Notes: a model not told the origin generated them from the sequence alone. DNA of 32,000 bases from Vibrio vulnificus CMCP6 (GCF_000039765.1 NC_004460.2:690001-722000); one strand, 5' to 3'. Counted from the first letter of the stretch, positions 4,354 to 28,900 are shown. Numbers and translations: made by a program.

Positions 4354-4372
4354 TCCATACGTAAAGGAAGCG

Positions 4373-5167: not shown

Positions 5168-5188
5168 CGCCACACAGGAAGAAAAACT

Positions 5189-7250: not shown

Positions 7251-10058
7251 ATGACTCTCGAATACTACGTTTACACCCAAGGCGAGACGCTTCAACGCGC
7301 ACTCAACGCCATCGCCGCGTTTTTTCAATCGGCTAGTTTTGCCTCCATGACCTCCATCGCCTTAATGATTGGGGCGATTATGACCATGGTGCTTTTTTTT
7401 ACCACACGCAACACCAAACATATTTATGTTTGGGCGATTATCTTTACCCTTGTCCCGTCGATGCTGCTGCAACAAACCGCACGCGTCCAAATCATCGACA
7501 AAACCGAACCAAGCGGCATCTATTCCGTGGACAATGTGCCTTATCTTGTCGCCGTCCCCACTTGGTTTTTCAGCACCCTGATGATGGGTGTAACCGAAGC
7601 CGTTGAAACCATTTTTATGACCACCGACGATAAACGTTACGGTCGGGCAGGCATGATGTTTGGATCAGAGTTGTATCAGTTATCCAGACAAGCGGATTTA
7701 AGAGATATTGAAGTGCGCCGAACTTGGAATGACTTTTTCAAAAACTGCATTATTGGGGACATCGAAATCAATCGTAAATACACCTGGCAAGCCTTACTGA
7801 GCGCCCCTGATATTTTTGGTTTTCTAGATGGGCAATCAATGAGCCCCCTTCGCGGCGTCATGATAAACGGCATGAGTCAGGACTTTAAAACCTGCCGAGA
7901 AATCTATCCGGACTTAAAAAGCCAATTCGGCGTCGCGTCCGCAGAGGAGCTTGATCTGATTGGCACGTATCTTCATGGAGCCAAAGCGGCGACCTATGCC
8001 CCTCACGTTCGCAGTGCGCTGCAAAATAGTTATCAGGACTTTATTGGCATCAGCAATAACGCCGTGGACGTGCTTCGACAAAATATGACGATAAATGCGA
8101 TGCGCCGCAGCATTCATGCGCTCAACCCGAATGCCAGTGCCATGAATTACGCCTACACCTCCAACAAAATGCAGCAAACCTCGATGTGGGCAACACTTGG
8201 CATGCAAGCACGTGAGTTCATTCCCATGATGCATACCATGCTGTTTTTCCTGTTCAGTTGCTTAAGCTTTATGATTGCCGCCGCCGCGCTCATTCCAGCA
8301 CTCACTAAAATGGTCTTGGTCAACTACATCAAGACCTTTGCGTATTTAGCGACCTGGCCTCCACTGTTCGCGATTTTAAATGTCCTGATGGTTTGGCCAT
8401 TGGAACTCTCATCAAACGCCACCGCCGACCCTATGAATGGCCTCTCCCTTTCTAATGCGAATGCCCTTGATGAGCTCCACTCACGCTTTGGCTACATGGC
8501 AGGCTTTCTCATGATGACCATTCCGGTCTTGGCCGGAAAAGTGCTGCAAGGCGGCGTTGCAGCGGCGCAAGCCATGAACTACCAGTTGGCAGGAATGATT
8601 AACAGCACCAACGCCCGGGTCAGCGCGGCAAGCTCAACCGGTAATATGGACTTTGGCAATTTGCAGATGCAAAACCACAGTTTCAATAACACCAGTGCCA
8701 ATAAGTTTGATGACAACATACTGTTAAGAACCGGCATGGCGACCATTCAACAACCAGATGGCGCTTCCATCACCACTCTACAAAATGATGATGGAAGCAA
8801 GCTCTATAACGCACAAGAAGCCATCTCAAGGCCCGTGTGGTCAGCCCAAACCTCAAGCATGCTACAAAACAGCATTCACGATCAATACTCCAGTGCCTTG
8901 ACCGCGCAAAAGCAGAGTATGAATACCTTCACCGATTTCTTCTCCAACAGCATGCAGCAAAGCGACCGCTGGAACGATAACTGGACACGCAGCCTCTCGT
9001 ATGGGGATGGCCATAGCACCGCTACCGAAGGTCAAATCAGCCAATCTTACTCGAAGATGGAGTCCGCCATCGATAACATCTCACAGACGATGGGCTGGTC
9101 ACATAACCAAGCCAGAGCGTATGCCATTTCAGCCAATGCAGGTGTCACCATCGGTACGCCAGGTCAAACTGTGCTTGGCAGTGGCGCCAGTGCCGGCGTT
9201 CAATGGAGCACCGACCAACGTGAGGCGTACAGCAACATGAGCGCTGAGCAGAAACAAGCTCTTGAACAAGCGACGCAGCAATACAGTGAAGGCGCGACCT
9301 CAATGGAGCGAGCAGGTCGCACGCTTGATACCAAAGATAACCGCAGCGCGGTGGAGCAATACGCCCATGACTTTGCGCTTAGCCATCAACGTCTGCAAAG
9401 CAGCGCAGCATCGGTCAGCGAATCGAATGCGGAAGTGGATAGCTTGCAGAACATTCAATCTCGCCTTGATACAAACTCGGTCAACTTTAGTGCCAGTGCG
9501 GTAACAGGTTTCCAAAAATACCTAGAGTCGAAGTTTGATGATAAAGGAGAAATCACGCGCCTAATGAACGCCACTAAGCCAGAAGATTTGAAAGATGCGC
9601 GTAGAGAATTTGATGACTACACACGTACAAACCAATTCCAGAAAGCTTTCGGGGTATCCACCTCCAAGAGTGATATCGAGGCTCTGGCTGATATGTACCA
9701 ACCTCGCAACCTGGGGAACATGCCAACCTCGACTAGTGAGCAGAAAGCCGGGGTCAACAGTGGCTCAGAAAGAGCGAAAGGTAAGATCGAGGAGGTAACG
9801 ATCGATATGATTAACTACCAAGGAAGTAACGAGCTGTATGACAATGACATTTACCGTAACGTGAAAGGCAATGCGTTAGTGGCCGGAGGACAGATGCAAA
9901 ACGAAGCTGAGCAGAACGTCACTTCAACCACTAATCCGAATGCAGACCTTAAGAAAACGGTAGACGATAAGATTATCTCGCCACCCAAAATGGATACGGA
10001 CCGGCCCCCTCATGAGGGATATCAGTTATATGATACCCATTCCAAAAGCAATGGATAA
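7251..10058 (+). CDS. traG: Mating-pair stabilisation / pilus assembly protein TraG (F-type)
   Basis: 935 aa with a polytopic N-terminal half and a Q/S/N-rich periplasmic C-terminal half. Starts 3 nt after the traH stop. Size and position match F TraG. Confidence 0.9.
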   Translation: MTLEYYVYTQGETLQRALNAIAAFFQSASFASMTSIALMIGAIMTMVLFFTTRNTKHIYVWAIIFTLVPSMLLQQTARVQIIDKTEPSGIYSVDNVPYLVAVPTWFFSTLMMGVTEAVETIFMTTDDKRYGRAGMMFGSELYQLSRQADLRDIEVRRTWNDFFKNCIIGDIEINRKYTWQALLSAPDIFGFLDGQSMSPLRGVMINGMSQDFKTCREIYPDLKSQFGVASAEELDLIGTYLHGAKAATYAPHVRSALQNSYQDFIGISNNAVDVLRQNMTINAMRRSIHALNPNASAMNYAYTSNKMQQTSMWATLGMQAREFIPMMHTMLFFLFSCLSFMIAAAALIPALTKMVLVNYIKTFAYLATWPPLFAILNVLMVWPLELSSNATADPMNGLSLSNANALDELHSRFGYMAGFLMMTIPVLAGKVLQGGVAAAQAMNYQLAGMINSTNARVSAASSTGNMDFGNLQMQNHSFNNTSANKFDDNILLRTGMATIQQPDGASITTLQNDDGSKLYNAQEAISRPVWSAQTSSMLQNSIHDQYSSALTAQKQSMNTFTDFFSNSMQQSDRWNDNWTRSLSYGDGHSTATEGQISQSYSKMESAIDNISQTMGWSHNQARAYAISANAGVTIGTPGQTVLGSGASAGVQWSTDQREAYSNMSAEQKQALEQATQQYSEGATSMERAGRTLDTKDNRSAVEQYAHDFALSHQRLQSSAASVSESNAEVDSLQNIQSRLDTNSVNFSASAVTGFQKYLESKFDDKGEITRLMNATKPEDLKDARREFDDYTRTNQFQKAFGVSTSKSDIEALADMYQPRNLGNMPTSTSEQKAGVNSGSERAKGKIEEVTIDMINYQGSNELYDNDIYRNVKGNALVAGGQMQNEAEQNVTSTTNPNADLKKTVDDKIISPPKMDTDRPPHEGYQLYDTHSKSNG

Positions 10059-10908: not shown

Positions 10909-11655
10909 TCACAACACCTGATTCATCAGAGCGTTGTGGTTTCGGCTTAAGGCCATAACATCATCGGCTAGCCTATCAATCTGCTGCTGTTGCATCCGCA
11001 TCCGGCCTTGAAATCCTTGGTATTCTTGCTCATCTATTAGCGTTAAGCCGTGTTGTTTGGCTTGTTGTTTAAGTCGCTGCAATTGAGGTGACTGAGTACG
11101 TAACTCATTGGCTAAATCCTGTTTTAATATTCTTTTTGCTAGCGCATGCTCGAAGCCTTGCTCTTGTGACCAAGCGTTGGTGTTGAAGACCGAGTTGTAA
11201 TGAAAGTGGATATTCTGGGTGGTGACGTTTTTGACTTGGGCGAGTTCGTAGATGAGATCATTCAGTGAGAAGTCAGACGAGGGTATTGGAGACGGTAGTG
11301 GCGGTGTTTGATGGTTACTTATGTTCTCAAAGGCACGAATCACCTTGAGATGGAACTTGGGGCTAATCCACATTGCGTATGAGTAGACCAGTTCTTTGCA
11401 TACCCAGGTACCAGAATTACAACCGCCACGCTTGGTATTTACGGCAAAGTGTGAATTCGCACTTTGGGATTTTTCACGAAAGCAACAATTCCTGCTTTGG
11501 TCTATTTCATTAATCAGTTCTTGGGTTTGCTGATTGCGAAGAAATTGAACAGGCTTGTGTTTTTGATGGCCACCACTCGCTTTATGTAGATCATTCAGCG
11601 AGTACAAGTTGTCGAGTACACGAATGTTTTTGGAAAGGATAGTTAGATTAGTCAT
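10909..11655 (-). CDS. KilA-N domain protein with C-terminal coiled coil
   Basis: Start set at the ATG at 11655 (GGAGG RBS 6 nt upstream) rather than 11907. The N-terminus MTNLTILSKNIRVLDNLYSLNDLHKASGG..KPVQFLRNQQTQELI..GTWVCKELVYSYAMWISPKFHLKVIRAF matches the KilA-N/Bro-type DNA-binding domain. The C-terminal half is Q-rich and helical. Confidence 0.75.
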   Translation of the reverse strand: MTNLTILSKNIRVLDNLYSLNDLHKASGGHQKHKPVQFLRNQQTQELINEIDQSRNCCFREKSQSANSHFAVNTKRGGCNSGTWVCKELVYSYAMWISPKFHLKVIRAFENISNHQTPPLPSPIPSSDFSLNDLIYELAQVKNVTTQNIHFHYNSVFNTNAWSQEQGFEHALAKRILKQDLANELRTQSPQLQRLKQQAKQHGLTLIDEQEYQGFQGRMRMQQQQIDRLADDVMALSRNHNALMNQVL

Positions 11656-11935
11656 ACTGACCTCCTTGGAATGATACATATAATCACCACTCAAAGGGAC
11701 TAATCTTCGGGTGGTGAACTGAACAGGGTTAGTTCTACCGCTTCCAAGGATACGGCTAGCCGAAGCTGCCCAGCCCACCATAATGCAGATAGTACAATCC
11801 GTAACCGAATCGACTATGTCCAGGTGTGCCGAAGCTACACATAAAAACCACCAAAAAGCCGGAGAGTACCCTAAACCATATTTGCCCCAAAGCGTGTTTC
11901 GTATCAAACGAATGGGAAATACATGTTTTCAAAAG
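11656..11935 (-). promoter_or_regulatory. Long hairpin-rich leader / possible structured RNA upstream of the KilA-N gene
   Basis: On the minus strand there are two hairpins capped by UUCG tetraloops (GTGTAGC-TTCG-GCACAC near 11825-11842; GGCAGC-TTCG-GCTAGCC near 11752-11770), sharing the repeated core AGCTTCGGC. A CACCAC..GTGGTG stem lies near 11686-11717. A candidate promoter TTGCCA-N17-TTTTAT lies near 11938-11966. Confidence 0.3.
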
Positions 11936-14132: not shown

Positions 14133-14290
14133 ATTCAAATCCTCAAAAATAATATTATGTTCAGAGTTTGGTCACGATATGCAACTCAAATCAAGAACAC
14201 AGAGATAATACCCCTGGTTATCACGTTGTTACACGATCATTTATAAAATGTTACCTTTTGAAATTAACAAGTATTACGGGTGTTTTTATT

Positions 14291-14313
14291 TATTTGAGAT
14301 TCTTACTATTTCC
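14291..14313 (+). repeat. Junction motif copy B
   Basis: TATTTGAGATTCTTACTATTTCC. Its first 11 nt are identical to 22232-22242. Confidence 0.45.
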
Positions 14314-14419
14314 AACTGACGATGATGTACCGGTTAGATCTGCGCCAGATGAGCTGAACTACAAGTTAAGAGACTTCTCGCATTCATAGTTATTCATGAA
14401 AGACTAATTTAGCAAGATA

Positions 14420-14847
14420 TTGACAAATACACGTAACCTGAGGCGACCAGCAAAGGGGCTTGTGTTACACAGCGATAGGGGCTCCCAGTATCCGAGCAGA
14501 CAATATCGCAAACAACTACAGGGTTATGGCATGTGGGCGAGCATTGGAGATGTCGGTGCTTGCTGGGATAATGCCGTGGTCGAGCGGTTCTTCGGAAGTT
14601 TAAAGCACGACTGGTTGTTTAAAGTGCACCAACCAGAGAGCATATGAAGGAGGATGTCTCAGCCTACATGAGGTATTACAACCTCGAAAAGCTGCATTCG
14701 GCGAACAATGACATGAAGCCAATTAATTATGAAGAGTTTTTAGCAGAAATAGACAAATGCCCACAGGCGTCTATAAAACGTTTTTATCCACCAACGTTTC
14801 AGATCTTCCTGAACCCTACTAAATGTGACTGCCAAACTTCATGTTGA
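14420..14847 (+). mobile_element. IS3-family transposase (OrfB) remnant, 5'-truncated and frameshifted
   Basis: HSDRGSQY (second DDE Asp) and CWDNAVVERFFGSLKHD (DDE Glu region) lie in one frame. The tail AYMRYYNLEKLHSANNDMKPINYEEF lies in another frame, with the shift near 14640. The N-terminal catalytic region and OrfA are absent. Confidence 0.8.
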
Positions 14848-14872
14848 CCAAAAACACTGAGAGGAGGTCATC

Positions 14873-15469
14873 ATGAGAAAGTTTTCTTCTGGAAAATGCA
14901 GTGGCATAAAAAGGCCATTTAAGCTTGAAGAAATCTGGCGGATCAGAACTAGGCTGGAGATTGAAAACGATTTAATGCAGCTCGCGCTACTGAACTTAGC
15001 TATAGATAGCAAGTTAAGAGCGAGTGATTTGCTAAAGCTACACGTTTACGATGTGTCTTCGCAAGGAGTTATCTATGACAGGGTTCAGTGCATCCAGCAA
15101 AAAACGGGCACCGATGTCCACTATGAGATAACACCAAGAACACAGCAAAGTATTAGCCGATGGATTTTTGCAGCATCCCTAGAGGCAAGCAGTTTTCTAT
15201 TTCCGAGTAGCAGACGCTCTGGGCAACCCATCAGCTACTCATTCTATCGTTCAATTATCAGGAGCTGGGCTGTAAAGCTTGGATTGAATGCTGACTATTA
15301 CGGTACTCACTCCATGCGTCGCACCAAAGCCACTTTAATCTATGCCAGAACGAAAAACATCAGGGCTGTACAGATCTTACTTGGACACTCGAAGCTTGAT
15401 AACACAATTCGATACCTCGGCGTTGAGCTAGAAGACGCTCTGAGGTTGTCTGAGAAAACAGACTGCTGA
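14873..15469 (+). CDS. Short tyrosine recombinase (catalytic domain only, FimB/FimE-sized)
   Basis: 198 aa with a GAGGAGG RBS. Catalytic signature: R in SKLRASDLL, HSMRRTKAT (H-x-x-R), LLGHSKLDNTIRYL (H..Y). There is no N-terminal core-binding domain. Confidence 0.85.
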   Translation: MRKFSSGKCSGIKRPFKLEEIWRIRTRLEIENDLMQLALLNLAIDSKLRASDLLKLHVYDVSSQGVIYDRVQCIQQKTGTDVHYEITPRTQQSISRWIFAASLEASSFLFPSSRRSGQPISYSFYRSIIRSWAVKLGLNADYYGTHSMRRTKATLIYARTKNIRAVQILLGHSKLDNTIRYLGVELEDALRLSEKTDC

Positions 15470-15510: not shown

Positions 15511-15794
15511 GCCCCTATATGTTTTAGATAGACTTGTCATTAGCAGGAAGCAAATAGAGGAACGAACTACTTTTCCTAATCGAAATGTATCGACAAATCC
15601 AAGGCCTTACTAGGTATCTATTGGCTGGGCAATGACCGAGGGATTAACTCATGATGTGTTTAGCTGAGTTGGTTTCGCTATCGCCATCTATGTGAACATT
15701 GAAACGGCGAAAACGATGTTATTTATGAATGAAGAGCGACATCAAACCCATTATCCGCTTAGGGCAATTCCGGCATTGGCGCTCATGACATTGC

Positions 15795-15816
15795 AAAAAG
15801 GACACATTGCGTGTCC
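15795..15816 (-). terminator. Rho-independent terminator of the NTase-SLATT operon
   Basis: On the minus strand: GGACAC-gcaat-GTGTCC followed by TTTTT, 10 nt after the SLATT stop codon. Confidence 0.6.
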
Positions 15817-15825
15817 CCCATGTTG

Positions 15826-16536
15826 TTATTTAGTCGCTTCACTATCCGGATTTGGTTCTGGTGTGGCATCTTTGACTAAAGCTGATTGTGATTCCGGTGC
15901 GGGTTGTTCTTGCCAGCATCCCACACAAGGCTCAGAAACCCATGCCCAAGTCTTGCTTGTGATACAAAATGGGTTTAGCCATAGCAAGGCAGCTACTATG
16001 GCACCAATGACCACAGCACGCAGGCTTAGAGGAACTTTGTCATTAAAGCCGAGAGCAAGTTCAGTGCTCATCCAGTCGCTATTGTGCTCAGAAAAGACTT
16101 TGTAATGGGCATACCATGAGGACAGCAACACAGGAGACATGGTGTCAACAGCTCGATGATCAGCCTGCACTTGAGCTAGGTCAGCTCTTGCTTTGGCAAC
16201 AGAGTTGGTATCTTGTATGTCAACTTCGCAGTAAATGCGCTCTAGTTTCTTGCTGATATCAGTCAAGCTAATCCCTGTCGCTTCATACTGCTCTTTCTGA
16301 AGCTCTCTTGGCTTAAGGACGATCCCGATAATACCGATAATAAGCAACAGAGCCGCTAAAGCCTTGCTGTTGAACTCTGCAAATGCCAAACCAAGCACAC
16401 CAAAAGACAGCGAAACTACGCTAATAATCGTAGGAAGCTTTTCGCAGATATCGAATGACGCAAAATGAAGCTTGGCGCTGTAGAGTACGTTGTAATACTC
16501 TCTAGCCACTTGCTTCTTAATCGTCTGTTCCGTCAT
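15826..16536 (-). CDS. SLATT-like membrane protein (predicted pore/effector partner of the NTase)
   Basis: 236 aa. N-terminal helix (AREYYNVLYSAKLHF), two closely spaced TM helices (about aa 34-52 and 58-74), a helical linker, a third TM (about 168-189) and a Cys/Trp/Pro-rich tail. AGGA RBS in the 12-nt gap after the NTase stop. Confidence 0.65.
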   Translation of the reverse strand: MTEQTIKKQVAREYYNVLYSAKLHFASFDICEKLPTIISVVSLSFGVLGLAFAEFNSKALAALLLIIGIIGIVLKPRELQKEQYEATGISLTDISKKLERIYCEVDIQDTNSVAKARADLAQVQADHRAVDTMSPVLLSSWYAHYKVFSEHNSDWMSTELALGFNDKVPLSLRAVVIGAIVAALLWLNPFCITSKTWAWVSEPCVGCWQEQPAPESQSALVKDATPEPNPDSEATK

Positions 16537-16548
16537 AAACTATTGTTC

Positions 16549-17814
16549 CTATTCGATTGGGACGGTGATTTCATGTCGTGCTATCACCGTATTGTTGCGG
16601 ATAGCGTAACACTCAACCGTATGATCGCCATAGAAATTAGCGGTCTCGATACGAGTTTTGCTACCGTCATCATCCATGATTTCACCACGGTGATTCCTCA
16701 GCTTGTCAGCCTCATCCCCACGGTTACGCACCTTCCACTTCACCTCATAATCTTCTCCGATGTCGGTTTGTTTTACAAAGAAGTGCAGTTTCCGTTGATG
16801 CTGAATTCGCTCCCCAACAAATTTTATTGATGACAACATTCTGGTCATCAGGTCGCTTTTAACCTCACAATCAATGATAATTTGGTTGGTAATATCCAGA
16901 TCGAACAGTTCCTCGATAAACTGCTCATTAACCGCCGCCGCTTGTTTGGCTTCACGATTAGGAAACTTAGTGCCAAAAATAGCCTTATATCGCTGGTTGC
17001 ACTTATCCTCATAGCCGCTCTCTCTGGCTTCTATGGCTTCAATGGCATTTTCCAGCGCTATCTGCGCATCAGCTTGGAATGCTTTCTTTATACCGACTTG
17101 GGAGTTACTGCCAAATGCGTAGTAGTACGTTTTCTCTGGCTCTTTGGTGAGGTATTGGAAAAAATCTCGCACCATCTTGTCAAAGCTACCGAAACTAGCT
17201 TTGTCGTAATCGGTGTTATCTTTGAAGAAGTTGTAGCAGAGAGTATCAATCAGAAAGCCACTCATCTGAATATCGTTTCTGGCCTTCCAAGCACGAATCA
17301 TTTTCGCAAGCTTACGTAGGTTGTCTTTACGCTCGGTGTTCAACTCCCTAAATGCTTGTAATTCAGCACGAGTGTTACACTTGCGCCATAAGCCGCCGTT
17401 ATATGTGTCAGGATATTTGAAAACTCCCTGCCATTCGAATACGGGCACCACCTCAAAGGTAAAGTCCTGCATCTCAACTACCACCACGTTGCGGTCTTTT
17501 TTTACCTTACTTGTCTTGTATGTCTTCTTGATAGCATCTTTGGCGTGGTCTAGTGCCTTTGATGGGTCTTTGCGGTAGGTAGGCCAAGTGCTAGGTGGGA
17601 GTATGTAGAGCATATCAAGGTCAGAAATACCTTGGATTCCAGAGTAACGACCATACGATCCAGCCTGAAGACTGTAACTTGTCTTGTCGTTTTCCAAACC
17701 TCGAAACTGTTCATTGAGGTTCTTCGTGATGCTTTCATAGCGACTCGAAATTTTGTTCTTGTTCTTGATCTTCAAGTTGTCCAAAAACACACTGAAATCC
17801 CGTCTTACCGTCAT
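16549..17814 (-). CDS. SMODS/CD-NTase-like nucleotidyltransferase with C-terminal AGS-C-like domain
   Basis: 421 aa with a GAGGG RBS. Pol-beta NTase signature G52-S53 .. D65-L-D67 .. E121 (FEVVPVF). A helical middle region is followed by a beta-rich C-terminal domain (EDYEVKWKVRNRGDEA..HRGEI..FYGDHTVECYAI). Confidence 0.75.
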   Translation of the reverse strand: MTVRRDFSVFLDNLKIKNKNKISSRYESITKNLNEQFRGLENDKTSYSLQAGSYGRYSGIQGISDLDMLYILPPSTWPTYRKDPSKALDHAKDAIKKTYKTSKVKKDRNVVVVEMQDFTFEVVPVFEWQGVFKYPDTYNGGLWRKCNTRAELQAFRELNTERKDNLRKLAKMIRAWKARNDIQMSGFLIDTLCYNFFKDNTDYDKASFGSFDKMVRDFFQYLTKEPEKTYYYAFGSNSQVGIKKAFQADAQIALENAIEAIEARESGYEDKCNQRYKAIFGTKFPNREAKQAAAVNEQFIEELFDLDITNQIIIDCEVKSDLMTRMLSSIKFVGERIQHQRKLHFFVKQTDIGEDYEVKWKVRNRGDEADKLRNHRGEIMDDDGSKTRIETANFYGDHTVECYAIRNNTVIARHEITVPIE

Positions 17815-17838
17815 ATGTCACCCTCATGTAGTTAAGTC

Positions 17839-17874
17839 CATGTATTACATGGGGGCATTGTTTGGTAAAACAAT
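17839..17874. promoter_or_regulatory. Two adjacent palindromes just upstream of the NTase start codon
   Basis: CATGTA-T-TACATG (17839-17851) and ATTGTTT-ggta-AAACAAT (17857-17874), lying 25-60 bp upstream of the ATG at 17814 on the minus strand. Confidence 0.35.
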
Positions 17875-18108
17875 CCTCCCTATCAATATACTGTGTCTGT
17901 GAAGACTGGTAAACACTACATGTGCGATGCGAATAATAAGAGATACCACTATTTGTTGAGTTGTTTATCAATGTAACTTTGCGGTGATTAGAATTCTTTG
18001 GGTAAATAAGAAACGCTTGTCTTTGTTCCTGCTTGTCCCGCCGATACACATGAGTTACAACTTTGCTACACCAAAGGCAATCCACGATTAACTAATTTAG
18101 AAGATGCT

Positions 18109-18164
18109 GTAACTCAGTATTATCCAGAACTTTCACAGTTGGCACTTCGTAACTCAGAAGTGCC
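18109..18164. promoter_or_regulatory. Direct repeat GTAACTCAG x2 (40-bp spacing), the second copy in the loop of an 8-bp hairpin
   Basis: GTAACTCAG occurs at 18109-18117 and 18149-18157. The hairpin is GGCACTTC-gtaactca-GAAGTGCC at 18141-18164. Lies in the divergent intergenic region. Confidence 0.3.
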
Positions 18165-18209
18165 CCAAAATGCGCTGCCTTACTTCTGCTCCTCGAGTTT
18201 ACAAACAGC

Positions 18210-18235
18210 CATTTGACTTAATTTTTCTTATCCGA
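18210..18235 (+). repeat. Junction motif copy D
   Basis: CATTTGACTTAATTTTTCTTATCCGA. TTTTTCTTATC (18222-18232) is identical to 22252-22262, with flanking ACAAA..ATTTGA and ..AAGG also shared. Confidence 0.45.
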
Positions 18236-18268
18236 ACAAAGGGCATTTCGTCAGAGCTTTCTAAGCTA

Positions 18269-18290
18269 AATATGATATTGTAATCATATT
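18269..18290. promoter_or_regulatory. 8-bp inverted repeat, operator-like, upstream of the SIR2 gene
   Basis: AATATGAT-attgta-ATCATATT, about 115 bp upstream of the ATG at 18404. Confidence 0.3.
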
Positions 18291-18403
18291 AGTGTTCTTA
18301 ATGCCGCTATTACCAATAGGAGCACTGACACCGCTATTGATGCGATTAATTATCGCTTAAGTCACAACACCTAAAAGTTAGAACTTTAAACACAAAAGGA
18401 AAC

Positions 18404-21400
18404 ATGATGCGATTCCTCGAAAATGGACCTTCAATACCTGATGAACTCTTATTAGCCAGAGACCAAGGTCGGGTGGTATTTTTTTGTGGTGCAGGTGTTT
18501 CAAGAGCAAAAGCGGGATTTGCCGACTTTTTTGGGCTAGCTTCATCTGTAACATCTGAGCTTGGTGTAGAAACCAGCAGCCCTGCCTTGAAGCTTATAGA
18601 GGCTGCTAAAGAAATAACCGCTAGTACTGGCGTGGAAGGGGTAGTTTCGGCTGATAGAATATTTGGTTTGCTGGAGCGAGAGTTCTTAACGAGAGATATA
18701 TATAAATCAGTAGCTAAGGCTCTCACACCTGAGGGAGAAGTTGACCTAAGCGCACATCAAACGATGCTTAAACTAGCTACAACGAACGATGGTATCGTAC
18801 GTTTGGTAACAACTAACTTTGATCGCTTATTTGATCTTTGCAAACCAGATATAAATACCTTTATGCCCCCAAGACTGCCTGATCTTAATCATCCAATTGA
18901 TTTTAATGGCACGGTATACCTTCATGGCAAAGTAAACGAGGATGGTACAGGTGCTGCAAGCAACGGCTTTGTCCTCTCAAGTTCTGAATTTGGTGATGCT
19001 TACTTGGCTAATGGTTGGGCTACCTCATTTGTCAAAGGGATATTGGAAAAATATGTCGTAGTTTTTGTCGGTTATTCTGCGGACGATCCGCCAATTCAGT
19101 ATTTGTTAGAAGCACTCAATAAAAGCTCAAGCCATCTCAACGATATATACGCATTTCAATCTGGTGATGAAAGTTACGCTAGCTCAAAGTGGCACCATAA
19201 AGGGGTAAAAGCGATTGCGTATGACGATACAAATGGACATATCGCGCTTTGGAACACTTTGGAATCTTGGGCCGAGCGGGCTTCTGATCCGGATGCATGG
19301 TATCAAGGAATAATCACAAAAGCTGGAATGGGGCCTCACCTCTTACTGCCCTTTGAACGCGGTCAGATTGCACATATTGTTTCTACAACCGAAGGAGCCA
19401 AAAAGTTTGCTAATAGTGAAATACTAGCTCCTGCCACTTGGCTTCATGTGTTTGATCCTGAATTGAGATATGAAACTCCTCGTAAAAATTTATCCGGTGC
19501 AGAAAACCTAACTGAGATGGTAGACCCATTTCACTTTTACTCTCTGGATTCGGATCATACACCACAGCATGTTGACCCTAATGACTTTTATAACAAACGT
19601 GAAGTTCCCACAGGAGCATGGGATGCTTTTGAGTTTAACTCACAAGACATTAAAGGAACACAAGACCAACGTTCTATAAGATTTAGAGGGGATGATTCCA
19701 GTTCCCCTCAGTTTTCAACCCTGCCTCAAAGGCTCAACGCATTAACATATTGGTTGAGCAGAGTGGCGGAACAGCCAGAAGTAATCTGGTGGGTTACGAA
19801 GCAGCAATGTCTTCATCCTTGGGTTCAGTTTGTACTTAAGTCAGAATGTGAGCGTCGTTCTAAAGATATGGATAGTACACTCAATGAGGCATGGAGCTAT
19901 GTTTTGGATGGCTTTGAACAAACTGATAAAGGAGGACACCGCGATTGGTTTACTCTGGAAAGAGCAATAAAGAATAATGGCTGGTGTCCCAGAAAATTAC
20001 GGCAATTTGAAAAGGTAACGAAACCATTCATCAAGGTCTCGCCGCCTTTCCGCACCCCGAATGAGATCAACTGGGAGCAGATTAGTTTAAAAGACTTAAT
20101 TCATTTAGATGTCCATTACTCAGAACTACCAAGAAGGCTAGAAATTCCTGATGAGTGGATAATTCGTACCGTTGAAGTCCTGAGACGTAATCTAGAGCTT
20201 GCTGTTGAACTAGAAAAAGAAATAGGAGGATATGGCCTGAGCCTGAGTTGTTCGTTAACACCCGAGAAGAAAACAGAGGATTCGTATAGTCGAACTTACG
20301 GTCTATCTGCATGGGTATTGCTGTTTGTTTCTTACTTAGAGAAATTAGTTTTGATTGACCTTGATGCTGCTCGGAAGGAGCTTTCAAGGTGGCCATGCGA
20401 TGACAGTACTATCTTTGCAAGGTTAAAGATTTGGGCGTTAGGGAAAACCAATCTTGTGCCTAATGAAAGTATTATTACTACTTTAAATCAACTTTCAGAC
20501 GAAGCATTTTGGGATAGTTATCATGCTAGAGACTTGCTTCTAGCTTTCGTAGCTAGATGGAAAGAACTCGACCAATGTCGCCGTTCCACAATAGAAAATA
20601 GAATATTGCAAGGACCTAAACTTTGGAAAACCAAAGATGAAAGTAGATTTAAGGAACAGAAAGCGAGAAATATTCTGGATAGAGTAACTTGGCTTAAACA
20701 AAATGGTTGTGAGTTAACAATAGCAACGGATAAGTTAGTTGATAGGCTAAGAGATGATGCGCCGGAATGGAAGCCTGAGCATGCAAAAGATGCAGCGTGC
20801 TCTTTTGAAGTTCGCGGCGGTATTGTAACCAAAAATACAGACTATTCTTTGTTAGCAGATGAACCAATAGACTCAATCCTTGAAAGAGCATATGAATTAT
20901 CTGGTAGACAAGCTGATTTTTTGATTGATGAAGACCCATTTCTAGGTTTATCACAAGAAAAACCGATTCGAGCTTTCAGCGCTTTAACTTGTTCGGCAAA
21001 AAAGGGAAACATTGTGGACTGGGCTTGGGATACTTTCCTTTATGCTGAAGCCCGTAAGAATGATAAACCCCGATTTATGGTGTTAATTGCAGAGCGTTTG
21101 TCTGGTTTTACCAGTAATGACTTGGCAAAAATACTTCGTTCAGTATCAAGCTGGTTTGAGCAGTCTACTAGCGTACTTGCTGGTAATTATTATGCTACAT
21201 ACTATAAATTAGCGTTTAAATTAGTTGATGCAATGTCGATACAACCTGCTAACGGTGAATCTTCAATAATACGAGGTAGTAAAGCTCCTGATTGGGCCAT
21301 GGAGTCAATAAACTCACCAACTGGAAACTTAACCAGTGCCATACTGAAATCACAGTATGGCCGTACTTTTGAATCTGGAGAGTGCTTCACTGGGGATTTA

Positions 21401-22216
21401 TTGTTATTACTCAACCAATTATTAGCTTTACCTAATGATTTACATCGTTACGCAATGGTTATACTTAGCCGCAGTTTAAGTTGGTGCTTTTGGGTTGATC
21501 CTGACTGGACTCAACGTAACTTGCTTTCTACCTTAAACTCTTCTTCCAGAGAAGATCGTCAGGCATTTTGGGCTGGTGTTTTATGGGGAGAAGTTCGCGG
21601 GAAAGAACTATTCACCATTTTGAAGCCAAGTATTCTGGAATTGGCATATTCAGGAGAAGTTGAAACCCGAGGTCATCAGGATGCTATTGTGGGATTAATT
21701 TTCTCAGCTTGGAAAATTAAGGATGAGGATAAAAGGTGGGTATCTGATCTTGAATTAAAAGAAGTATTAATTAAAGCAAGTGATGGCTTTAGGTGTGGAA
21801 TATTATGGCAAGCTAGGCATGGAGAGAGTGAAGACAAAGAGCATTGGTTACTAGCATTCAGAGAACTTATCTCAAATGTTTGGCCAAAACAGCTTGCTGC
21901 TAAATCCCCCGCTGTATCAGAACGCCTTTGTGATATCGCATTTTGGTCGGAAGAACACTTCCCTGAAATTGTAAACCTAATCACTCCGTTCTTAACGAAA
22001 TTCGAACGTGCTAACCACATCTACCTGAATGATGACAACGTACTTAAAAAATATCCTAATGATCTATTGTTACTCCTGAACATTGTATTACCTGATGATG
22101 TTAACAAATGGCCTTACGGCATTGGGGACTATTTAGAGCAAATGATAGAAGCTAATAGTGAGTTAGGTGATGATGAACGCTTTATCGAACTCAAAAGAAA
22201 ATGGGATGCAAGGTGA
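18404..22216 (+). CDS. Large SIR2-like-domain protein (DSR-like architecture: N-terminal NADase-type SIR2 plus about 1000-aa unassigned C-terminal region)
   Basis: 1270 aa with an AAGGA RBS; the ATG at 18407 is equally possible. SIR2-like motifs: VVFFCGAGVS (aa 24-33), LVTTNFD (134-140), VYLHGK (171-176), VVFVGYSADDP (219-229). The rest looks helical, is rich in W and L, and has no motif I recognise. Confidence 0.8.
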   Translation: MMRFLENGPSIPDELLLARDQGRVVFFCGAGVSRAKAGFADFFGLASSVTSELGVETSSPALKLIEAAKEITASTGVEGVVSADRIFGLLEREFLTRDIYKSVAKALTPEGEVDLSAHQTMLKLATTNDGIVRLVTTNFDRLFDLCKPDINTFMPPRLPDLNHPIDFNGTVYLHGKVNEDGTGAASNGFVLSSSEFGDAYLANGWATSFVKGILEKYVVVFVGYSADDPPIQYLLEALNKSSSHLNDIYAFQSGDESYASSKWHHKGVKAIAYDDTNGHIALWNTLESWAERASDPDAWYQGIITKAGMGPHLLLPFERGQIAHIVSTTEGAKKFANSEILAPATWLHVFDPELRYETPRKNLSGAENLTEMVDPFHFYSLDSDHTPQHVDPNDFYNKREVPTGAWDAFEFNSQDIKGTQDQRSIRFRGDDSSSPQFSTLPQRLNALTYWLSRVAEQPEVIWWVTKQQCLHPWVQFVLKSECERRSKDMDSTLNEAWSYVLDGFEQTDKGGHRDWFTLERAIKNNGWCPRKLRQFEKVTKPFIKVSPPFRTPNEINWEQISLKDLIHLDVHYSELPRRLEIPDEWIIRTVEVLRRNLELAVELEKEIGGYGLSLSCSLTPEKKTEDSYSRTYGLSAWVLLFVSYLEKLVLIDLDAARKELSRWPCDDSTIFARLKIWALGKTNLVPNESIITTLNQLSDEAFWDSYHARDLLLAFVARWKELDQCRRSTIENRILQGPKLWKTKDESRFKEQKARNILDRVTWLKQNGCELTIATDKLVDRLRDDAPEWKPEHAKDAACSFEVRGGIVTKNTDYSLLADEPIDSILERAYELSGRQADFLIDEDPFLGLSQEKPIRAFSALTCSAKKGNIVDWAWDTFLYAEARKNDKPRFMVLIAERLSGFTSNDLAKILRSVSSWFEQSTSVLAGNYYATYYKLAFKLVDAMSIQPANGESSIIRGSKAPDWAMESINSPTGNLTSAILKSQYGRTFESGECFTGDLLLLLNQLLALPNDLHRYAMVILSRSLSWCFWVDPDWTQRNLLSTLNSSSREDRQAFWAGVLWGEVRGKELFTILKPSILELAYSGEVETRGHQDAIVGLIFSAWKIKDEDKRWVSDLELKEVLIKASDGFRCGILWQARHGESEDKEHWLLAFRELISNVWPKQLAAKSPAVSERLCDIAFWSEEHFPEIVNLITPFLTKFERANHIYLNDDNVLKKYPNDLLLLLNIVLPDDVNKWPYGIGDYLEQMIEANSELGDDERFIELKRKWDAR

Positions 22217-22231
22217 GCCAATTTTAACAAA

Positions 22232-22265
22232 TATTTGAGATTTTAAGTTACTTTTTCTTATCTGA
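22232..22265 (+). repeat. Junction motif copy E (longest; shares segments with all other copies)
   Basis: TATTTGAGATTTTAAGTTACTTTTTCTTATCTGA, lying between the SIR2 stop (22216) and its terminator. Confidence 0.45.
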
Positions 22266-22271
22266 GTAAGG

Positions 22272-22303
22272 CGCGTTAGAGCGATATACCTAACGCGTTT
22301 TTG
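22272..22303 (+). terminator. Rho-independent terminator of the SIR2 gene
   Basis: CGCGTTAG-agcgatatac-CTAACGCG followed by TTTTTG. Confidence 0.75.
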
Positions 22304-22451: not shown

Positions 22452-24545
22452 ATGCACACGCCTACACGCAAGAAAAGCAACCACTTTACTCGTGGAGGAC
22501 AAGTGACCTTTCACGCCATTACCATGTTCTTTCAAGTGAACAATAAACTTGTGAAATTCATTGGTTGGGGCGTAGTTGCGCTCACTTTGTTACTGACGCA
22601 CCTAAATTCCCCTCCTAATGCTTTGTGGGGCGAATTTTATTACTTCCGTAATGTTCTATATGCAAAGCTAGGGAAGCCTCTCGATAGCCCTGTCACCACC
22701 ATTTGGGAAGGTGAGCGCTACACCGACACCCTCGCCTATCAACTGCAAAACTCTGTTCTCCTCGATATCCACGCCACCATTTGGCACAACGTTCAAATCT
22801 ACTTTCTGATTGCTTTAGTGATAGGCATGGCCATCTTCATGATCGCCTTACGCTTTTTTAAAGAGCAAGGCGAAAAACAGAGTGAAGATATTCATATCCG
22901 AGGCTTTCGCTTAGCCCCGCCAGAAGCCATCACCAAAAAGCTCAAAGCACGAGCAAAAGCCAAGAAGAAACGAGGCTATGGGGATGGGTCAATATCGAGT
23001 TTTAAAATCGATGGTCATGCGCTTTTAAAGCAGTACTTCGAAGTTCAGCACTTACTCATTGATGGCACCACAGGGGCGGGAAAATCCATCATGATCCGCA
23101 AACTGGTGCGTTGGATACGCGCTCAGGGCGATAAAGCCATCATCTACGATAAGGGATGCACCTTTACTAGTAAATTCTACAACCCAGCGACCGACGTTCT
23201 CCTCAACCCCTTTGATAAACGCTGCGCTAACTGGGATGTATGGAGTGATGCCATCGAGGCGCCGGATTTTGAAAACATGGCCGCCGCATTAATCCCTCAA
23301 CATGGTGAAGGCGACCCGTTCTGGGTCGATTCTGCCAGAACAATCTTTTCCTCTACCGCTTATCGCATGAGTCAAGATAACAAACCTTGCACCACTGAGC
23401 GATTACTCAGTTTGATCTTAACTTCTGAGCTGGAAACACTTGGCAACTTCTTAGAAGGTACAGAGTCCGCTTCTCTTGTCTCAACGGACATTAAGAAAAC
23501 CGCGATTTCCATCAAATCGGTATTGGCCACTTACATCAAAAGCCTGCGCTTTTTGGATGGTCTTAATCACCAAGAGCGCCCTGATAAGCTCAGACAAAAG
23601 TTTTCAATCACAAACTGGGTTCAAGACGATAACCAAAAAGGCTTTTTGTTTCTCTCCAGTAATGCGCAGCAACATGCTTCACTAAGACCACTGATATCGA
23701 TGTGGTTAGCCATTGCTTCCAATGCCATTTTAGGACTGAAAGAAGACGAAGAACGTCGTATCTGGGTCATTATGGATGAAATGCCAAGCTTGCATAAGTT
23801 GCCTGAGCTGGGCTCTATCATTGCCGAAGTTCGTAAGTTTGGGGGATGCTATCTGATTGGTATCCAGTCGTATGCGCAGCTCGTCAAAACCTATGGTAAG
23901 AATGCCGCTGAAGAGATGTTTGATTTACTTAACACACGCTTCTTCTTTCGAGCCCCGTCTGAGCCTATGGCGCGTATCTCTGCTAAAGACTTGGGTGAAC
24001 AAGAAGTCGATGTCTCAAAAGAAAATGTCTCTTACGGCGCAAATACCTTGCGTGACGGTGTCTCTCTTGGCCACCAAACCATTACACGCCCTGTCGTATC
24101 TGCTAGTGAAATCCAAGCCTTAGATGACCTGCAATGTTATCTGCGCTCTCCTGGCATTGATCTTATCACTAGGCTCGACCTAGAATTCGACAAAATGAGT
24201 GACATTTGTCCAGCGTTTGATAAACGCACCATTGTACTTTCATCCGCAATGAGCAAAGTATATGAACAGGCAATTTACCATGAATGTGTTGCGCCTGGCT
24301 TATACCTGAACGAAGAAGATCGTCATAAGCTAACGGATGCTCAAGAGACGAACTTTGAAAACGAAGAGCAGATGAAAGCAGAAACCGTTCACATTCAACA
24401 AGCGATAAAAAGCGAGACAGTGAGCGAGCTGGTCAACCAATATCCACAACTCAAACAGGAGCAAGCCTATCAAGAGGAAGCTCAGCGCAATATTGAAGAA
24501 GCCGCCATTTCTCAAGAAGCCGAAATAGGAGAAGTTTACGACTAG
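22452..24545 (+). CDS. traD: Type IV coupling protein TraD
   Basis: 697 aa with an AAGGAG RBS. Has N-terminal TM helices, Walker A DGTTGAGKS, and long collinear blocks with F TraD (IIYDKGCTF..LNPFDKRCANWDVW..DPFW..KTAISIKSVLATY..RKFGGCYLIGIQSYAQL..). The C-terminal tail is acidic and Q-rich. Confidence 0.95.
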   Translation: MHTPTRKKSNHFTRGGQVTFHAITMFFQVNNKLVKFIGWGVVALTLLLTHLNSPPNALWGEFYYFRNVLYAKLGKPLDSPVTTIWEGERYTDTLAYQLQNSVLLDIHATIWHNVQIYFLIALVIGMAIFMIALRFFKEQGEKQSEDIHIRGFRLAPPEAITKKLKARAKAKKKRGYGDGSISSFKIDGHALLKQYFEVQHLLIDGTTGAGKSIMIRKLVRWIRAQGDKAIIYDKGCTFTSKFYNPATDVLLNPFDKRCANWDVWSDAIEAPDFENMAAALIPQHGEGDPFWVDSARTIFSSTAYRMSQDNKPCTTERLLSLILTSELETLGNFLEGTESASLVSTDIKKTAISIKSVLATYIKSLRFLDGLNHQERPDKLRQKFSITNWVQDDNQKGFLFLSSNAQQHASLRPLISMWLAIASNAILGLKEDEERRIWVIMDEMPSLHKLPELGSIIAEVRKFGGCYLIGIQSYAQLVKTYGKNAAEEMFDLLNTRFFFRAPSEPMARISAKDLGEQEVDVSKENVSYGANTLRDGVSLGHQTITRPVVSASEIQALDDLQCYLRSPGIDLITRLDLEFDKMSDICPAFDKRTIVLSSAMSKVYEQAIYHECVAPGLYLNEEDRHKLTDAQETNFENEEQMKAETVHIQQAIKSETVSELVNQYPQLKQEQAYQEEAQRNIEEAAISQEAEIGEVYD

Positions 24546-25957: not shown

Positions 25958-28900
25958 ATGATGTCAATCAGCCCTTTAAGATCTCCCTCTAACGCTGCTC
26001 AATACTACTTAAACGAAGAAAACACCCAAGACCTACCGGACACCTCTCTCGAAAAAGACGCTAGCGACAACTATTACCTCAAGGAAAAACAACAAGGTGA
26101 AAACACCTTTTGGCATGGAAAATTAGCACAAGAAGCAGGATTGCTTGGTAAACCTGTAGAACAAAAAACCTTAGAGACTATCCTTTCTGGCACACTCAAT
26201 GATGAAACCATTAAGGGCAAGCGAGAAGACCATAAAAGTGGATTCGATCTCACTTTTTCTGCTCCTAAAAACGCCAGTATACTCGCATTGGTCGGTGGGG
26301 ATTCACGTCTGATTGAAGCGCACAACAACGCGGTGAAATTTGCCCTCTCAGAGTTAGAGAAGGACGTAGCTCAGGCCACGCACACCAACGAAGCTGGCGA
26401 ACGCGAGTTTCACAATACTCAGTCCATGATTTTTGCGGTCGTTCGTCATAAAACCAGTCGCAACAACGATCCACAAGTTCACTCCCATGCCCTCGCTGCC
26501 AATATGACCCGAGATCAGGAAGGCAACTTACGTACACTCGCGTCTAACTTAAAACAGAAAGGCGGCGTCATTAATGGCAGTGGCGAGCGCATCTATAACT
26601 TTCAGAAGTATTACACTGCCCTTTACCAAAGCCAGTTCGCCAGAGAATCCGAAGAATTGGGTTTCCAAACAAAAGGACTCGGTAACGCTCAATTTGATAT
26701 CGATGGCGTCCCGGAGTCATTACATAAAGCGTTCTCAACACGCAAACAGCAAATTGACCAACAGGTAATGGAGTTTGGCCATGATACCCAAGCAAGTAGA
26801 GACACCGCAGCCCTTGATACCCGACAGAGAAAAACTTACCACAGCGATTCGACCTTAAACCACAAATGGCAACAAACCGTAAAAGGTGAAGGTTTTGACC
26901 CTGCCCTTTTGGTCAAACAAAGCCAAGCAATGCCTCAAAAAGGCGGCCATGCCATGCAGCAAGCCCATGAAGCGTTTTCACATGCAATGACGCACTTGGG
27001 GCAGTACTCAACCTCATTGAGCCTTGAGAAAGTGATTGAGGTCGCGGCCTCAGACTTTACTAAAGGAACACAGCAAGCCAATGCGATTGATTTAAAGCAA
27101 GTCGCCGACGAGTGGATAAAAAACGGCCAGCTTGTACCACTGGCTGAGAAAGGACACTACACCTCCCAAACGATGCTGAAAAACGAAAAAGCACTCATGG
27201 ACATCACTAAGGGACGGACTCATAACATGCGCACTAATATCGATGAACCGACCCTAAACCGTCTCAATATTGCCCAAGATAATCGCCAAAAAGTGGCCGA
27301 CCTTTATGGCTCAACCAAACAGTTTCACGTGGTCAACGTATTTGGTTCTTCCGAGCAAATCGCGCAAAACCTACTTAACGCAGGCAACCACAGTGGTAAG
27401 CGAGTACAGCTTGTCTCTCAAAACACCCAACACCACCGCCATAATCAACAAAACATCCCCCGAGAAAGCCACACCTTTGTCACTTGGGTTAAGCATTTAT
27501 TTCAAGACGATCAGCGTCATACCTTACAAGGTCTACTTGATTCTAAGCACCCGCTGACCAACAAGGACATTATTTTAGTCGATAACGCAAACAAAATGAG
27601 TGCGAATGAACTGCTCTCACTCAGTGAAAAAGCCGGTAACAGCAACAGTAAAGTTATCTTACTTAACCGTGTCTCAAACCGCCAAGGCATGAAAGCGCAC
27701 AGCGCTATCGACCTTTACAGTAAAGGAAATGTCACGACGCACACCTGGGTCAACAGCAAACAAGCGGATAGCGTCGTGCGACTGCATAATCGAGAGGATC
27801 ACAACATCGCTCTCACTTACGCCGACTTGCCCGACAAAACCAATGCTCAAGTATTGGCAACCTCTGGAGTCGAACAACGGCGATTAACCAATGAGATACG
27901 CGCCGCTTTGAAGAACGATGGCCAACTCTCACGCACCAGTGTCACTGTCTTCACCCAGCAACCTCATTACCTTTCAAAGCCACAACAACAATTTGCAAAG
28001 CATTACCAATCCGGTATGACCCTCAGACAATGGGATAAGGGAAAACCTCACGACTTCGTGATCGCCAGTGTCGATAAAGCCTCTAACACCCTAGAGGTTT
28101 TGAGCAAAACGGACGGTAAAGCAAGCACTTTTGACCCTTCGTCTAAAGCGTTTCAATCTATGAACATGCAATTGTACAAACCAGACGCCCTTGAGATCTC
28201 TCAAGGTGAACGTATTCTGGCCACAAATAAGCACTTTCCTTCTCAGCTCGAAGCTGGACACCATTACCTTGTCACGTCCATCACTAAAAACTCATTAACG
28301 CTAACCAATCAACAAGGACAATCAAGTACGCTCCCTCTAGATAAATTGAAAGACGCGCCACTCACGTATGACTATGCTCACTCAGCTAATCACTTTGAGC
28401 CCAGAGAACATACCTTACTGTCGGGAAAAGCCTTTACGCTCTCTAAAGCATTACTCAATGACCTAACAGAGAGCAGTGCTCGCTTAGACATTTTCACAGA
28501 CCATCCTGAGAAAGCGCAACAAGCTCTAGAAAAAGCAGAAGTTCGCCCCTCAGCCATCGAACGAGTCCTGCACACTCAGCACATCAATGATCGCTATCTC
28601 TCTGAAGCCACAGAGTCTACCCTCAGACACGATATTGAACACGCCATTGGTGTACTCGCGAAAGAGCAACACGCGCCTGTTTCACAGAAAGCAGTCGATT
28701 TCGCCCTAAACCACCTGTCAGAAAAAGAGGCCGGATTTACTCAAAAAGAGCTAGTGATTGAAGCGGTACGTTTTGCTTTTGAGGAAACCAATAGCCCCAT
28801 CACCAAAGCGCACATTGAGGCCGAGCTGGCGGAGCGCAGTGACACCCTTTCTGCAGAATACAGTGACGGTACACGTTGGACGACAGAGGCAGCCATCGAA

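Follow-up and report, generated by a model that had tools for sequence, protein, structure and literature searches.

We analyzed a 32,000-nt stretch of the genome of Vibrio vulnificus CMCP6 (NC_004460.2:690001-722000; below called the window, with all positions counted from its first letter) that contains a pair of adjacent minus-strand genes, one encoding a nucleotide cyclase with a C-terminal AGS-C domain and the other a membrane protein of the SLATT_6 family. This locus is very probably an intact two-gene Type I operon of the cyclic-oligonucleotide-based anti-phage signaling system (CBASS), forming a compact cassette of ~2.1 kb in the defence island of an F-type conjugative element. The confidence expressed here concerns the identity of the system and is lower for the individual steps of its mechanism. 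The domain names are already borne by the database annotation of both proteins. The features of the locus are as follows (CD-NTase denotes a cGAS/DncV-like nucleotidyltransferase; pLDDT, predicted local distance difference test; RBS, ribosome-binding site).

17815..17923, minus strand: 5' leader travelling with the cassette (RBS, inverted repeats, sigma-70-like hexamers)
16549..17814, minus strand: gene 1, cyclase (421 aa, identical to AAO07599.1 of Vibrio vulnificus)
16966..17814, minus strand: CD-NTase catalytic core of gene 1, residues 1-283 (G52-S53, D65-x-D67, E121)
16927..16965, minus strand: inter-domain linker of gene 1, residues 284-296 (disordered; hypervariable in sequence and length)
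16552..16926, minus strand: AGS-C domain of gene 1, residues 297-421 (PF18134 match, beta-rich)
16537..16550, minus strand: intergenic gap of 12 nt with the AGGA Shine-Dalgarno motif (sequence read)
15826..16536, minus strand: gene 2, SLATT_6 membrane effector (236 aa, identical to AAO07598.1)
15829..15966, minus strand: subfamily-specific C-terminal tail of gene 2, residues 191-236 (family alignment; pLDDT <50)
15795..15819, minus strand: intrinsic-terminator-like hairpin followed by T5 (GGACAC-GCAAT-GTGTCC, folded directly)

The two open reading frames (ORFs) are separated by exactly 12 nt, as was noted in a preliminary description of this DNA. Gene 1 is preceded by the motif GAGGG at 17825-17821, 6 nt upstream of its ATG. 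Gene 2 has AGGA at 16550-16547, 10 nt upstream of its ATG; thus, the RBS that had been placed in the gap does exist, but it straddles the TAG stop codon of gene 1 and does not lie wholly between the genes. This overlap and the short gap suggest that translation of the two genes may be coupled, and in most of the homologous cyclase-SLATT_6 loci the genes are similarly close or overlap (-17 to +14 nt). Downstream, a hairpin begins 9-10 nt past the stop codon of gene 2, which agrees with the terminator initially described. It is composed of the stem GGACAC/GTGTCC (15816-15811/15805-15800) and the loop GCAAT, is followed by T5 at 15799-15795 and has a folding energy of -11.1 kcal/mol. A generic consensus terminator scan of the window did not report the hairpin at 15816-15795, probably because a G-U extension of the stem uses up the T-run.

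The leader contains two inverted repeats (17821-17830/17846-17855 and 17851-17863/17868-17880) and sigma-70-like hexamers at 17913-17885 that are consensus matches only. The upstream region had been called palindrome-rich, and in the whole 589-nt leader (17815-18403), which is common to the divergent neighbour gene, we counted four perfect 8-mer inverted repeats where dinucleotide shuffling predicts 0.61 (p about 0.02). Palindromes are indeed enriched, though only modestly.

Nucleotide homology with the copy from Photobacterium damselae is confined to positions 15786-17923, i.e., to the two genes and short flanks, which sets the bounds of the mobile cassette at about 2.1 kb. Judging from this limit, the gene pair is a self-contained operon, as had been proposed. 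Gene decay was considered and rejected, as the ORFs are both intact, none of the invariant residues has been lost and identical copies occur widely: both proteins are encoded identically on at least 23 contigs.

The cyclase and its partner protein

In the product of gene 1, Pfam recognizes SMODS at residues 1-159 (E=1.4e-45) and AGS_C (PF18134) at residues 297-421 (E=1.3e-38). The AGS_C profile, located C-terminally on a nucleotide cyclase, scores 132 bits against a curated cut-off of 26.7. The PADLOC model CBASS Cyclase PDLC00796 covers positions 1-421 of 432 (E=3.2e-159). The catalytic residues G52, S53, D65, D67 and E121 stand at the positions given for them previously; an alignment of 30 homologues, the most distant of them 44% identical, shows no variation at these residues, across 80 species their conservation is 95% or higher, and E121 lines up with the third catalytic Asp of Pseudomonas aeruginosa CdnD. 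The nearest solved structures revealed by phmmer are CdnD proteins (6p82 CdnD, E=7.5e-8). The AlphaFold2 (AF2) model was compared with solved structures by Foldseek, and the top 50 listed matches were all bacterial CD-NTases, including CdnD, CdnC, CdnB, DncV and CdnE (the best was 6p8u CdnD, E=1.2e-12). Nucleotidyltransferases of the MNT/HEPN antitoxin or aminoglycoside type were thus rejected: no such match was obtained with Pfam, NCBIfam or PADLOC, and the sequence matches and the top 50 listed fold matches in the PDB were to CD-NTases only, in line with the family assignment made at first.

The AF2 model of the cyclase has a mean pLDDT of 82, mostly above 80 in the core, and a predicted TM-score (pTM) of 0.63. 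Its only low-confidence segments are residues 1-5, 53-59 and 284-295, and the last of these, with pLDDT below 50, lies in the linker that connects both domains. The linker is variable both in sequence and in length. Across 80 species its mean column entropy is 2.58 bits vs 1.2-1.6 in the domains, and its length ranges from 12 to 26 aa, the 13 aa of the window subfamily being among the shortest. These patterns make the hypervariable linker an obvious candidate for an arms-race site.

The AGS-C domain shows a different pattern. Initially described as a beta-rich C-terminal domain of ~110 aa, it does belong to AGS_C and is beta-rich, with 8-9 strands in the AF2 model, but its length is 125 aa. 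The fraction of columns at least 95% identical is 23%, compared with 23-24% in the catalytic core (80 species); the conserved residues include W360, K361, N364, G366, R376, G377, E390, H398, E401 and C402. In the listed matches among 488 clusters formed at 50% identity, AGS_C is always C-terminal. Such conservation fits a putative fixed site for a ligand or partner better than an antibody-like variable surface. An Ig-like fold has been claimed for AGS-C (Richmond-Buccola et al., bioRxiv 10.1101/2023.05.21.541620), while in our model only beta-rich secondary structure is seen; the same authors term AGS-C a "domain of unknown function". In the Pfam description it is named a "sensor" domain on the basis of comparative genomics.

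It should be mentioned that the term AGS-C is used inconsistently: in the review PMC7288161 it denotes the alpha-helical C-lobe of DncV, and PF18134 is a separate beta-rich C-terminal add-on. In addition, several Vibrio parahaemolyticus members of the 90%-identity cluster of gene 1 are truncated (208, 250, 307 and 413 aa), which suggests decay of the cyclase in some strains; the V. vulnificus copy is intact.

The product of gene 2 had been described as SLATT-like, and it matches Pfam SLATT_6 (PF18169) over residues 1-176 (E=2.2e-70; 236 bits vs a cut-off of 27.1) and NCBIfam SLATT_6 (214 bits vs a cut-off of 100). The PADLOC model CBASS Effector 2TM PDLC00709 covers residues 1-235 of 236 (E=8.3e-126) and thus takes in the C-terminal tail. 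Hydropathy analysis revealed hydrophobic segments at about 34-55, 59-74 and 168-190. The protein can be laid out as an N-terminal cytoplasmic helix, transmembrane (TM) helices TM1 (34-55) and TM2 (59-74), a cytoplasmic helical region (75-167), TM3 (168-190) and the tail (191-236). Its AF2 model is all-alpha, with helices that agree with the TM calls, an N-terminal helix that runs into TM1 and a disordered tail.

Both the third TM helix and the Cys/Trp/Pro-rich tail had been regarded as atypical additions to this protein. For the helix this was not borne out, since each of the 22 SLATT_6 proteins aligned has it, including those of only 30% identity. The tail is indeed specific to a subfamily. 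It contains 3 Cys, 3 Trp and 6 Pro, and its motif PxCxxxKxWAWxxEPCxGCW is restricted to marine relatives with an identity of roughly 50% and above; distant SLATT_6 proteins do not have it. Lys and Arg together number 5 N-terminally, 11 in the middle part and 3 in the tail; this distribution points to an N-in topology, which suggests that the Cys-rich tail would be placed in the periplasm.

The preliminary description had also presented gene 2 as a "bare pore-former". This is hard to reconcile with the conservation of the family: of the 21 residues invariant in SLATT_6, 16 belong to the cytoplasmic N-terminal helix or the helical region 75-167 and not to the TM helices. These 16 include Y15, N16, K22, D29, K33 and the block A143-H144-Y145-K146; the preceding W141 and Y142 are at least 90% conserved. 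SLATT effectors are believed to form oligomeric assemblies that breach the membrane, pockets being predicted between their cytoplasmic protomers, and the position of the invariant residues is consistent with the view that the signal is bound in these pockets before oligomerization.

Assignment to Type I CBASS and possible mode of action

Type I CBASS consists of a cyclase and an effector without ancillary genes, TM effectors being its commonest partners (Richmond-Buccola et al.). The locus shows this composition: a SMODS cyclase with an intact active site, an adjacent effector on the same strand and no ancillary genes. The ORFs up to about 5 kb away in both directions include no genes for Cap2/Cap3, HORMA/TRIP13, SAVED or STING and no Type IV CBASS genes, as had been observed for Cap2/Cap3, SAVED and STING before. 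It was this lack that had led to the operon being called "non-canonical", a label which we do not retain, since a cyclase with a TM effector and no ancillary genes is what defines Type I, and the PADLOC CBASS models match both proteins over their full length; Pfam and NCBIfam likewise assign them to the cyclase and effector families of CBASS. The "NTase/AGS-C sensor + SLATT effector" pair was likewise annotated as Type I CBASS in a survey of lactococcal plasmids, and a study of CapV placed SLATT4 and SLATT6 in the most abundant class of CBASS effectors.

The earlier statement that this architecture lacks experimental characterization also had to be abandoned. Among the ~2,400 Type I CBASS operons analyzed by Richmond-Buccola et al., ~40% encode a CD-NTase-AGS-C fusion; clades B and H have it almost throughout, and clades F and G on some of their branches. 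Seventeen operons were cloned, including EcCdnF04-SLATT6 and EcCdnF05-SLATT6; like the locus in the window, both are two-gene operons with an AGS-C-fused CD-NTase, a SLATT6 effector and no cap genes. EcCdnF04-SLATT6 restricted phages of five families at least 10^4-fold, and AGS-C-containing operons gave broader protection against Drexlerviridae. Phage escape mutations mapped to the prohead protease and other virion-assembly proteins, and the prohead-protease escape mutants were partially cross-resistant to AGS-C-containing operons. The authors concluded that minimal two-gene operons suffice for defence (all from Richmond-Buccola et al.).

Comparison with other known systems leads to the same assignment. 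EcCdnD12-4TM and EaCdnB/PspCdnB06-Cap15 also consist of a minimal cyclase and a TM effector and act by abortive infection through membrane disruption. The CdnB06 cyclases carry AGS-C, as does the cyclase of the window, whereas the clade D cyclases do not; the effector folds (S_4TM or the Cap15 beta-barrel) differ from SLATT_6. Type II/III CBASS (DncV-CapV-Cap2-Cap3; CdnC/CdnD-HORMA-TRIP13) have the CD-NTase fold and catalytic motif in common with gene 1. They were ruled out, since neither Cap2 (E1/E2) with Cap3 (JAB) nor HORMA with TRIP13 stands beside the cyclase; moreover, AGS-C is reported to be absent from these types (Richmond-Buccola et al.). Pycsar, another two-gene combination of a cyclase and a TM effector, in which AGS-C also occurs on the PycC cyclases, was ruled out because the catalytic domain is SMODS/CD-NTase and not a pyrimidine cyclase. 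In Thoeris type VII, with its cyclic ADP-ribose (cADPR)-responsive ThsH, and in DRT10 (reverse transcriptase + SLATT), a SLATT membrane-killing module is gated by the signal of a partner enzyme, as we propose here. There, a TIR protein or a reverse transcriptase takes the place that the CD-NTase has in the window, and cADPR or cDNA serves as the signal.

Several points weigh against this reading of the locus. We found no report in the literature on cloning or assay of the Vibrio operon itself, and the equation of its cyclase family with the tested clade F operons is inferred indirectly, from the distribution of AGS-C over clades B, F, G and H and from the fact that the SLATT6 operons assayed are F04/F05 (Richmond-Buccola et al.). 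The AGS-C profile has no homologue in the PDB at E<=10. For the SLATT_6 protein, the PDB contains no relative by sequence, and Foldseek of its AF2 model against solved structures gave a best E of 0.54. Finally, the model of the cyclase lacks an internal disordered loop of ~30 aa like the activation loop of clades A, D and G, so the route of activation by proteases may not apply to it. In vitro activity had been seen for no clade F CD-NTase enzyme.

We next consider the distribution of the operon and the partners of the cyclase. Full-length relatives of gene 1 with 40-97% identity were found in 473 genomes (a scan with one genome per species) of Proteobacteria, Bacteroidota, Cyanobacteria, Planctomycetota, Acidobacteriota, Leptospira and Firmicutes. 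The partner genes were counted and the cyclase tree was built for the best 80 of the 473 species loci. The gene directly downstream of the cyclase encoded SLATT_6 in 57 of these 80 loci, SLATT_4 in 20 and S_4TM in one; in the remaining two it was unclassified or not adjacent. On the cyclase tree, SLATT_4 and SLATT_6 partners are intermingled at no fewer than seven places, a sign that effectors are exchanged as modules, as already described for Type I CBASS.

This exchange bears on the proposal that AGS-C is the sensor of the system and that its logic is unlike that of described CBASS, with AGS-C binding the product of its own cyclase (auto-sensing or feedback) or the cyclase gating SLATT_6 by direct contact. 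The name "sensor" speaks for it, as do the conservation of AGS-C at the level of the core and the invariant polar residues K361, N364, R376, E390, H398 and E401, which suggest a fixed site for a ligand or partner; furthermore, Pfam recognizes no nucleotide-sensor domain in SLATT_6, and the pTM of the cyclase model leaves the arrangement of the two domains open. However, one and the same cyclase family pairs with SLATT_6, SLATT_4 and S_4TM, with repeated swaps over the tree, and a DncV-like AGS-C nucleotidyltransferase pairs with a soluble SMODS-associated NUDIX (Sa_NUDIX) effector. SLATT_6-like genes also follow reverse transcriptases, and the SLATT effector of Thoeris VII is reported to respond to cADPR, so that SLATT proteins appear to be generic signal-gated effectors. 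Besides, the presence of AGS-C correlates with phage range, pointing to sensing at the input and not gating at the output (Richmond-Buccola et al.). The interchangeable pairing of AGS-C cyclases with SLATT_6, SLATT_4, S_4TM and Sa_NUDIX partners is more easily explained by a diffusible signal than by dedicated protein-protein gating, and we regard the alternative with AGS-C as sensor as unlikely.

The NUDIX pairing was detected in the Enterococcus phage contig OR846606 (2083-4372 of the extracted locus), where a 454-aa DncV-like nucleotidyltransferase with a C-terminal AGS_C is followed by Sa_NUDIX; the record is labelled "UNVERIFIED_ORG". It shows that AGS-C fusions are not restricted to membrane effectors and, by its origin, that they may be phage- or prophage-borne. 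PHROGs contain full-length families for both proteins of the operon, and so prophages carry the gene pair too. A tblastn search of phage records with gene 1 gave only three weak partial matches.

The SLATT_6 genes associated with reverse transcriptases were observed beside the cyclase itself. In Vibrio penaeicida (locus L016, 7335-10209) and Photobacterium chitinilyticum (locus L018, 7638-9852) a gene for a 509-aa RVT_1 reverse transcriptase lies between the cyclase and the SLATT_6 gene. This may represent a DRT10-like defence pair of reverse transcriptase and SLATT next to CBASS, or else an intron-type insertion. In the former locus SLATT_4 also accompanies the cyclase; in the latter the cyclase has no adjacent effector.

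The operon type is also found on plasmids. Homologues of SLATT_6 were revealed on 71 plasmids, mostly conjugative and enterobacterial. The Escherichia coli IncX plasmid pMAS2027 encodes a 442-aa SMODS-AGS_C cyclase, 41% identical to gene 1 over its full length, followed by SLATT_6. The Vibrio proteins are diverged from this version, which has the same architecture: identity is about 41% for the cyclase and about 33% for SLATT_6. The 191-aa SLATT_6 of pMAS2027 does not have the 46-aa Cys/Trp/Pro tail of the Vibrio effector. Of 5,426 complete E. coli genomes, 272 harbour an operon of the pMAS2027 type, which occurs both on IncX plasmids and in chromosomes. Comparison of the cassette with plasmids by megablast gave only short flank matches in Vibrio plasmids. 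In pMAS2027 (4783-6950 of the extracted locus), two genes encoding HEPN-domain proteins are located directly downstream of the cyclase-AGS-C and SLATT_6 operon; they may constitute another defence or toxin module of the same island.

Based on the sequence features and on analogy with the tested systems, the following mode of action can be suggested for the operon as a Type I CBASS. Both genes would be co-transcribed and translationally coupled. By analogy with tested Type I CBASS, the CD-NTase core would be idle in uninfected cells and would be activated by a late phage cue connected with virion assembly or with the activity of the prohead protease. AGS-C, carried on its disordered hypervariable linker, may tune phage sensing or regulate the cyclase. 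The enzyme would then produce a cyclic di- or oligonucleotide. According to the current model of SLATT effectors, the conserved helical regions of SLATT_6 in the cytoplasm would sense this signal, leading to oligomerization and a breach of the inner membrane, and the infected cell would die before phage release (abortive infection).

For the activation step, a variant of the activation-loop route can be imagined in which AGS-C is an autoinhibitory cap and the cyclase is switched on when a phage protease cuts the linker 284-296. The linker is the only exposed disordered segment of the protein besides the N-terminus and the active-site loop, and it is the most variable part (12-26 aa), as expected of an arms-race site. 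Protease cleavage activates CD-NTases of other clades (A, D and G), and the partial cross-resistance of the prohead-protease escapers is specific to AGS-C-containing operons (Richmond-Buccola et al.). On the other hand, the idea, though attractive, is wholly conjectural. In the protease study the loops of clades A, D and G were mapped inside the catalytic core, without mention of AGS-C, and the linker of the window subfamily is among the shortest, at 13 aa. Cutting of the linker seems an improbable trigger.

Two further readings can be put forward: (a) that AGS-C is a conserved autoinhibitory or ligand-binding cap and the fast-evolving disordered linker is cut by phage proteases, and (b) that a marine subfamily of SLATT_6 carries a periplasmic, disulfide-capable Cys/Trp module (C192, C207, C210). 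The evidence for either consists of patterns of conservation and disorder, and we hold them to be unlikely. If the former is true, the ~40% of Type I CBASS with AGS-C would come under the protease-tripwire mechanism; if the latter is true, the Cys/Trp module would add a second, envelope-side control of the SLATT_6 effector.

The kind of system described here is already known and catalogued, and it has been functionally validated in homologous form in E. coli. As a discovery the locus adds little; standard defence finders would call the CBASS pair automatically. Its value is that of a clean, compact (~2.1 kb) and naturally mobile example of the class combining an AGS-C cyclase with SLATT_6. The cassette could serve as a convenient model for questions common to the field: which nucleotide is made, what AGS-C does, and how SLATT proteins sense the signal and kill.

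The conjugative element carrying the operon

The window spans the distal part of the transfer region in an F-type conjugative element, with cargo located between TraG and TraD. The transfer genes and the other features of the region are as follows.

8-1015: TraU
1904-2611: TrbC
2608-4353: TraN
4274-5167: TraF
5838-7247: TraH
7251-10058: TraG
14420-14647 and 14644-14847: degenerate IS3-like transposase fragments (rve-like "HSDRGSQY" and "YYN..KLH" remnants)
14873-15469: short tyrosine-recombinase ORF, 198 aa (matches only the C-terminal catalytic part of Phage_integrase)
18404-22216, plus strand: DSR1, divergent neighbour of the CBASS pair (1270-aa SIR2_2 protein, PADLOC Dsr1, E=8e-93)
22452-24545: TraD
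25958-31744: TraI, 1928 aa

An Endonuclease_1 gene is also located in the transfer segment 22452-31744. The cargo comprises a KilA-N gene, a major facilitator superfamily transporter, the IS3-like fragments, the truncated integrase, the CBASS pair and DSR1. The nearest plasmid relative of the element, from Vibrio mediterranei, is only 72.5% identical to it. The contigs that host the element are up to 0.4-1.9 Mb long, and so it is probably integrated in the V. vulnificus chromosome.

By their gene content, DSR1 and the CBASS pair form a small defence island. In a sister element (L003) DSR1 (about 18171-22296 of the window) is replaced by genes for an OLD-TOPRIM ATPase and a UvrD helicase, a Gabija-like pair; this swap indicates that the slot between traG and traD behaves as a defence hotspot. 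The combination of CBASS with DSR1 or a Gabija-like pair in this slot illustrates how conjugative elements, here in a human pathogen, carry exchangeable defence islands.

The location of the pair between traG and traD, the slot occupied by traS/traT in F, raises the question of whether it could serve the conjugative element itself, either as an addiction or stabilization module or by excluding competing mobile elements. A hok/gef-like gene is located nearby, and CBASS effectors are intrinsically toxic, two of the 17 cloned operons being toxic in E. coli (Richmond-Buccola et al.). Against such a role, the cassette is found in an unrelated chromosomal context in P. damselae, and cassettes of this type occur on E. 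coli IncX plasmids, in chromosomes and in prophage-derived families. Moreover, its neighbours are phage-defence genes swapped between strains (DSR1 and the Gabija-like pair), which is the pattern of a defence hotspot. A function of this kind is therefore very improbable, and anti-phage defence by CBASS is preferred.

The IS3-like fragments and the truncated recombinase (14168-15469), situated beside the terminator of the CBASS operon, look like scars of an earlier insertion of cargo. Three otherwise 99.9%-identical elements (L001, L003 and L004) contain an extra segment of ~1 kb between CBASS and DSR1 (8623-9644 of these loci, corresponding to ~18161-18171 of the window). It carries an ORF of 188 aa without a Pfam match. 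At the junction the blast segments share about 11 nt, a possible target-site duplication. The KilA-N protein encoded at 10909-11907 on the minus strand gave a weak match to the PADLOC candidate system PDC-S22 (E=7e-7) over 40 residues only, which is probably not meaningful.

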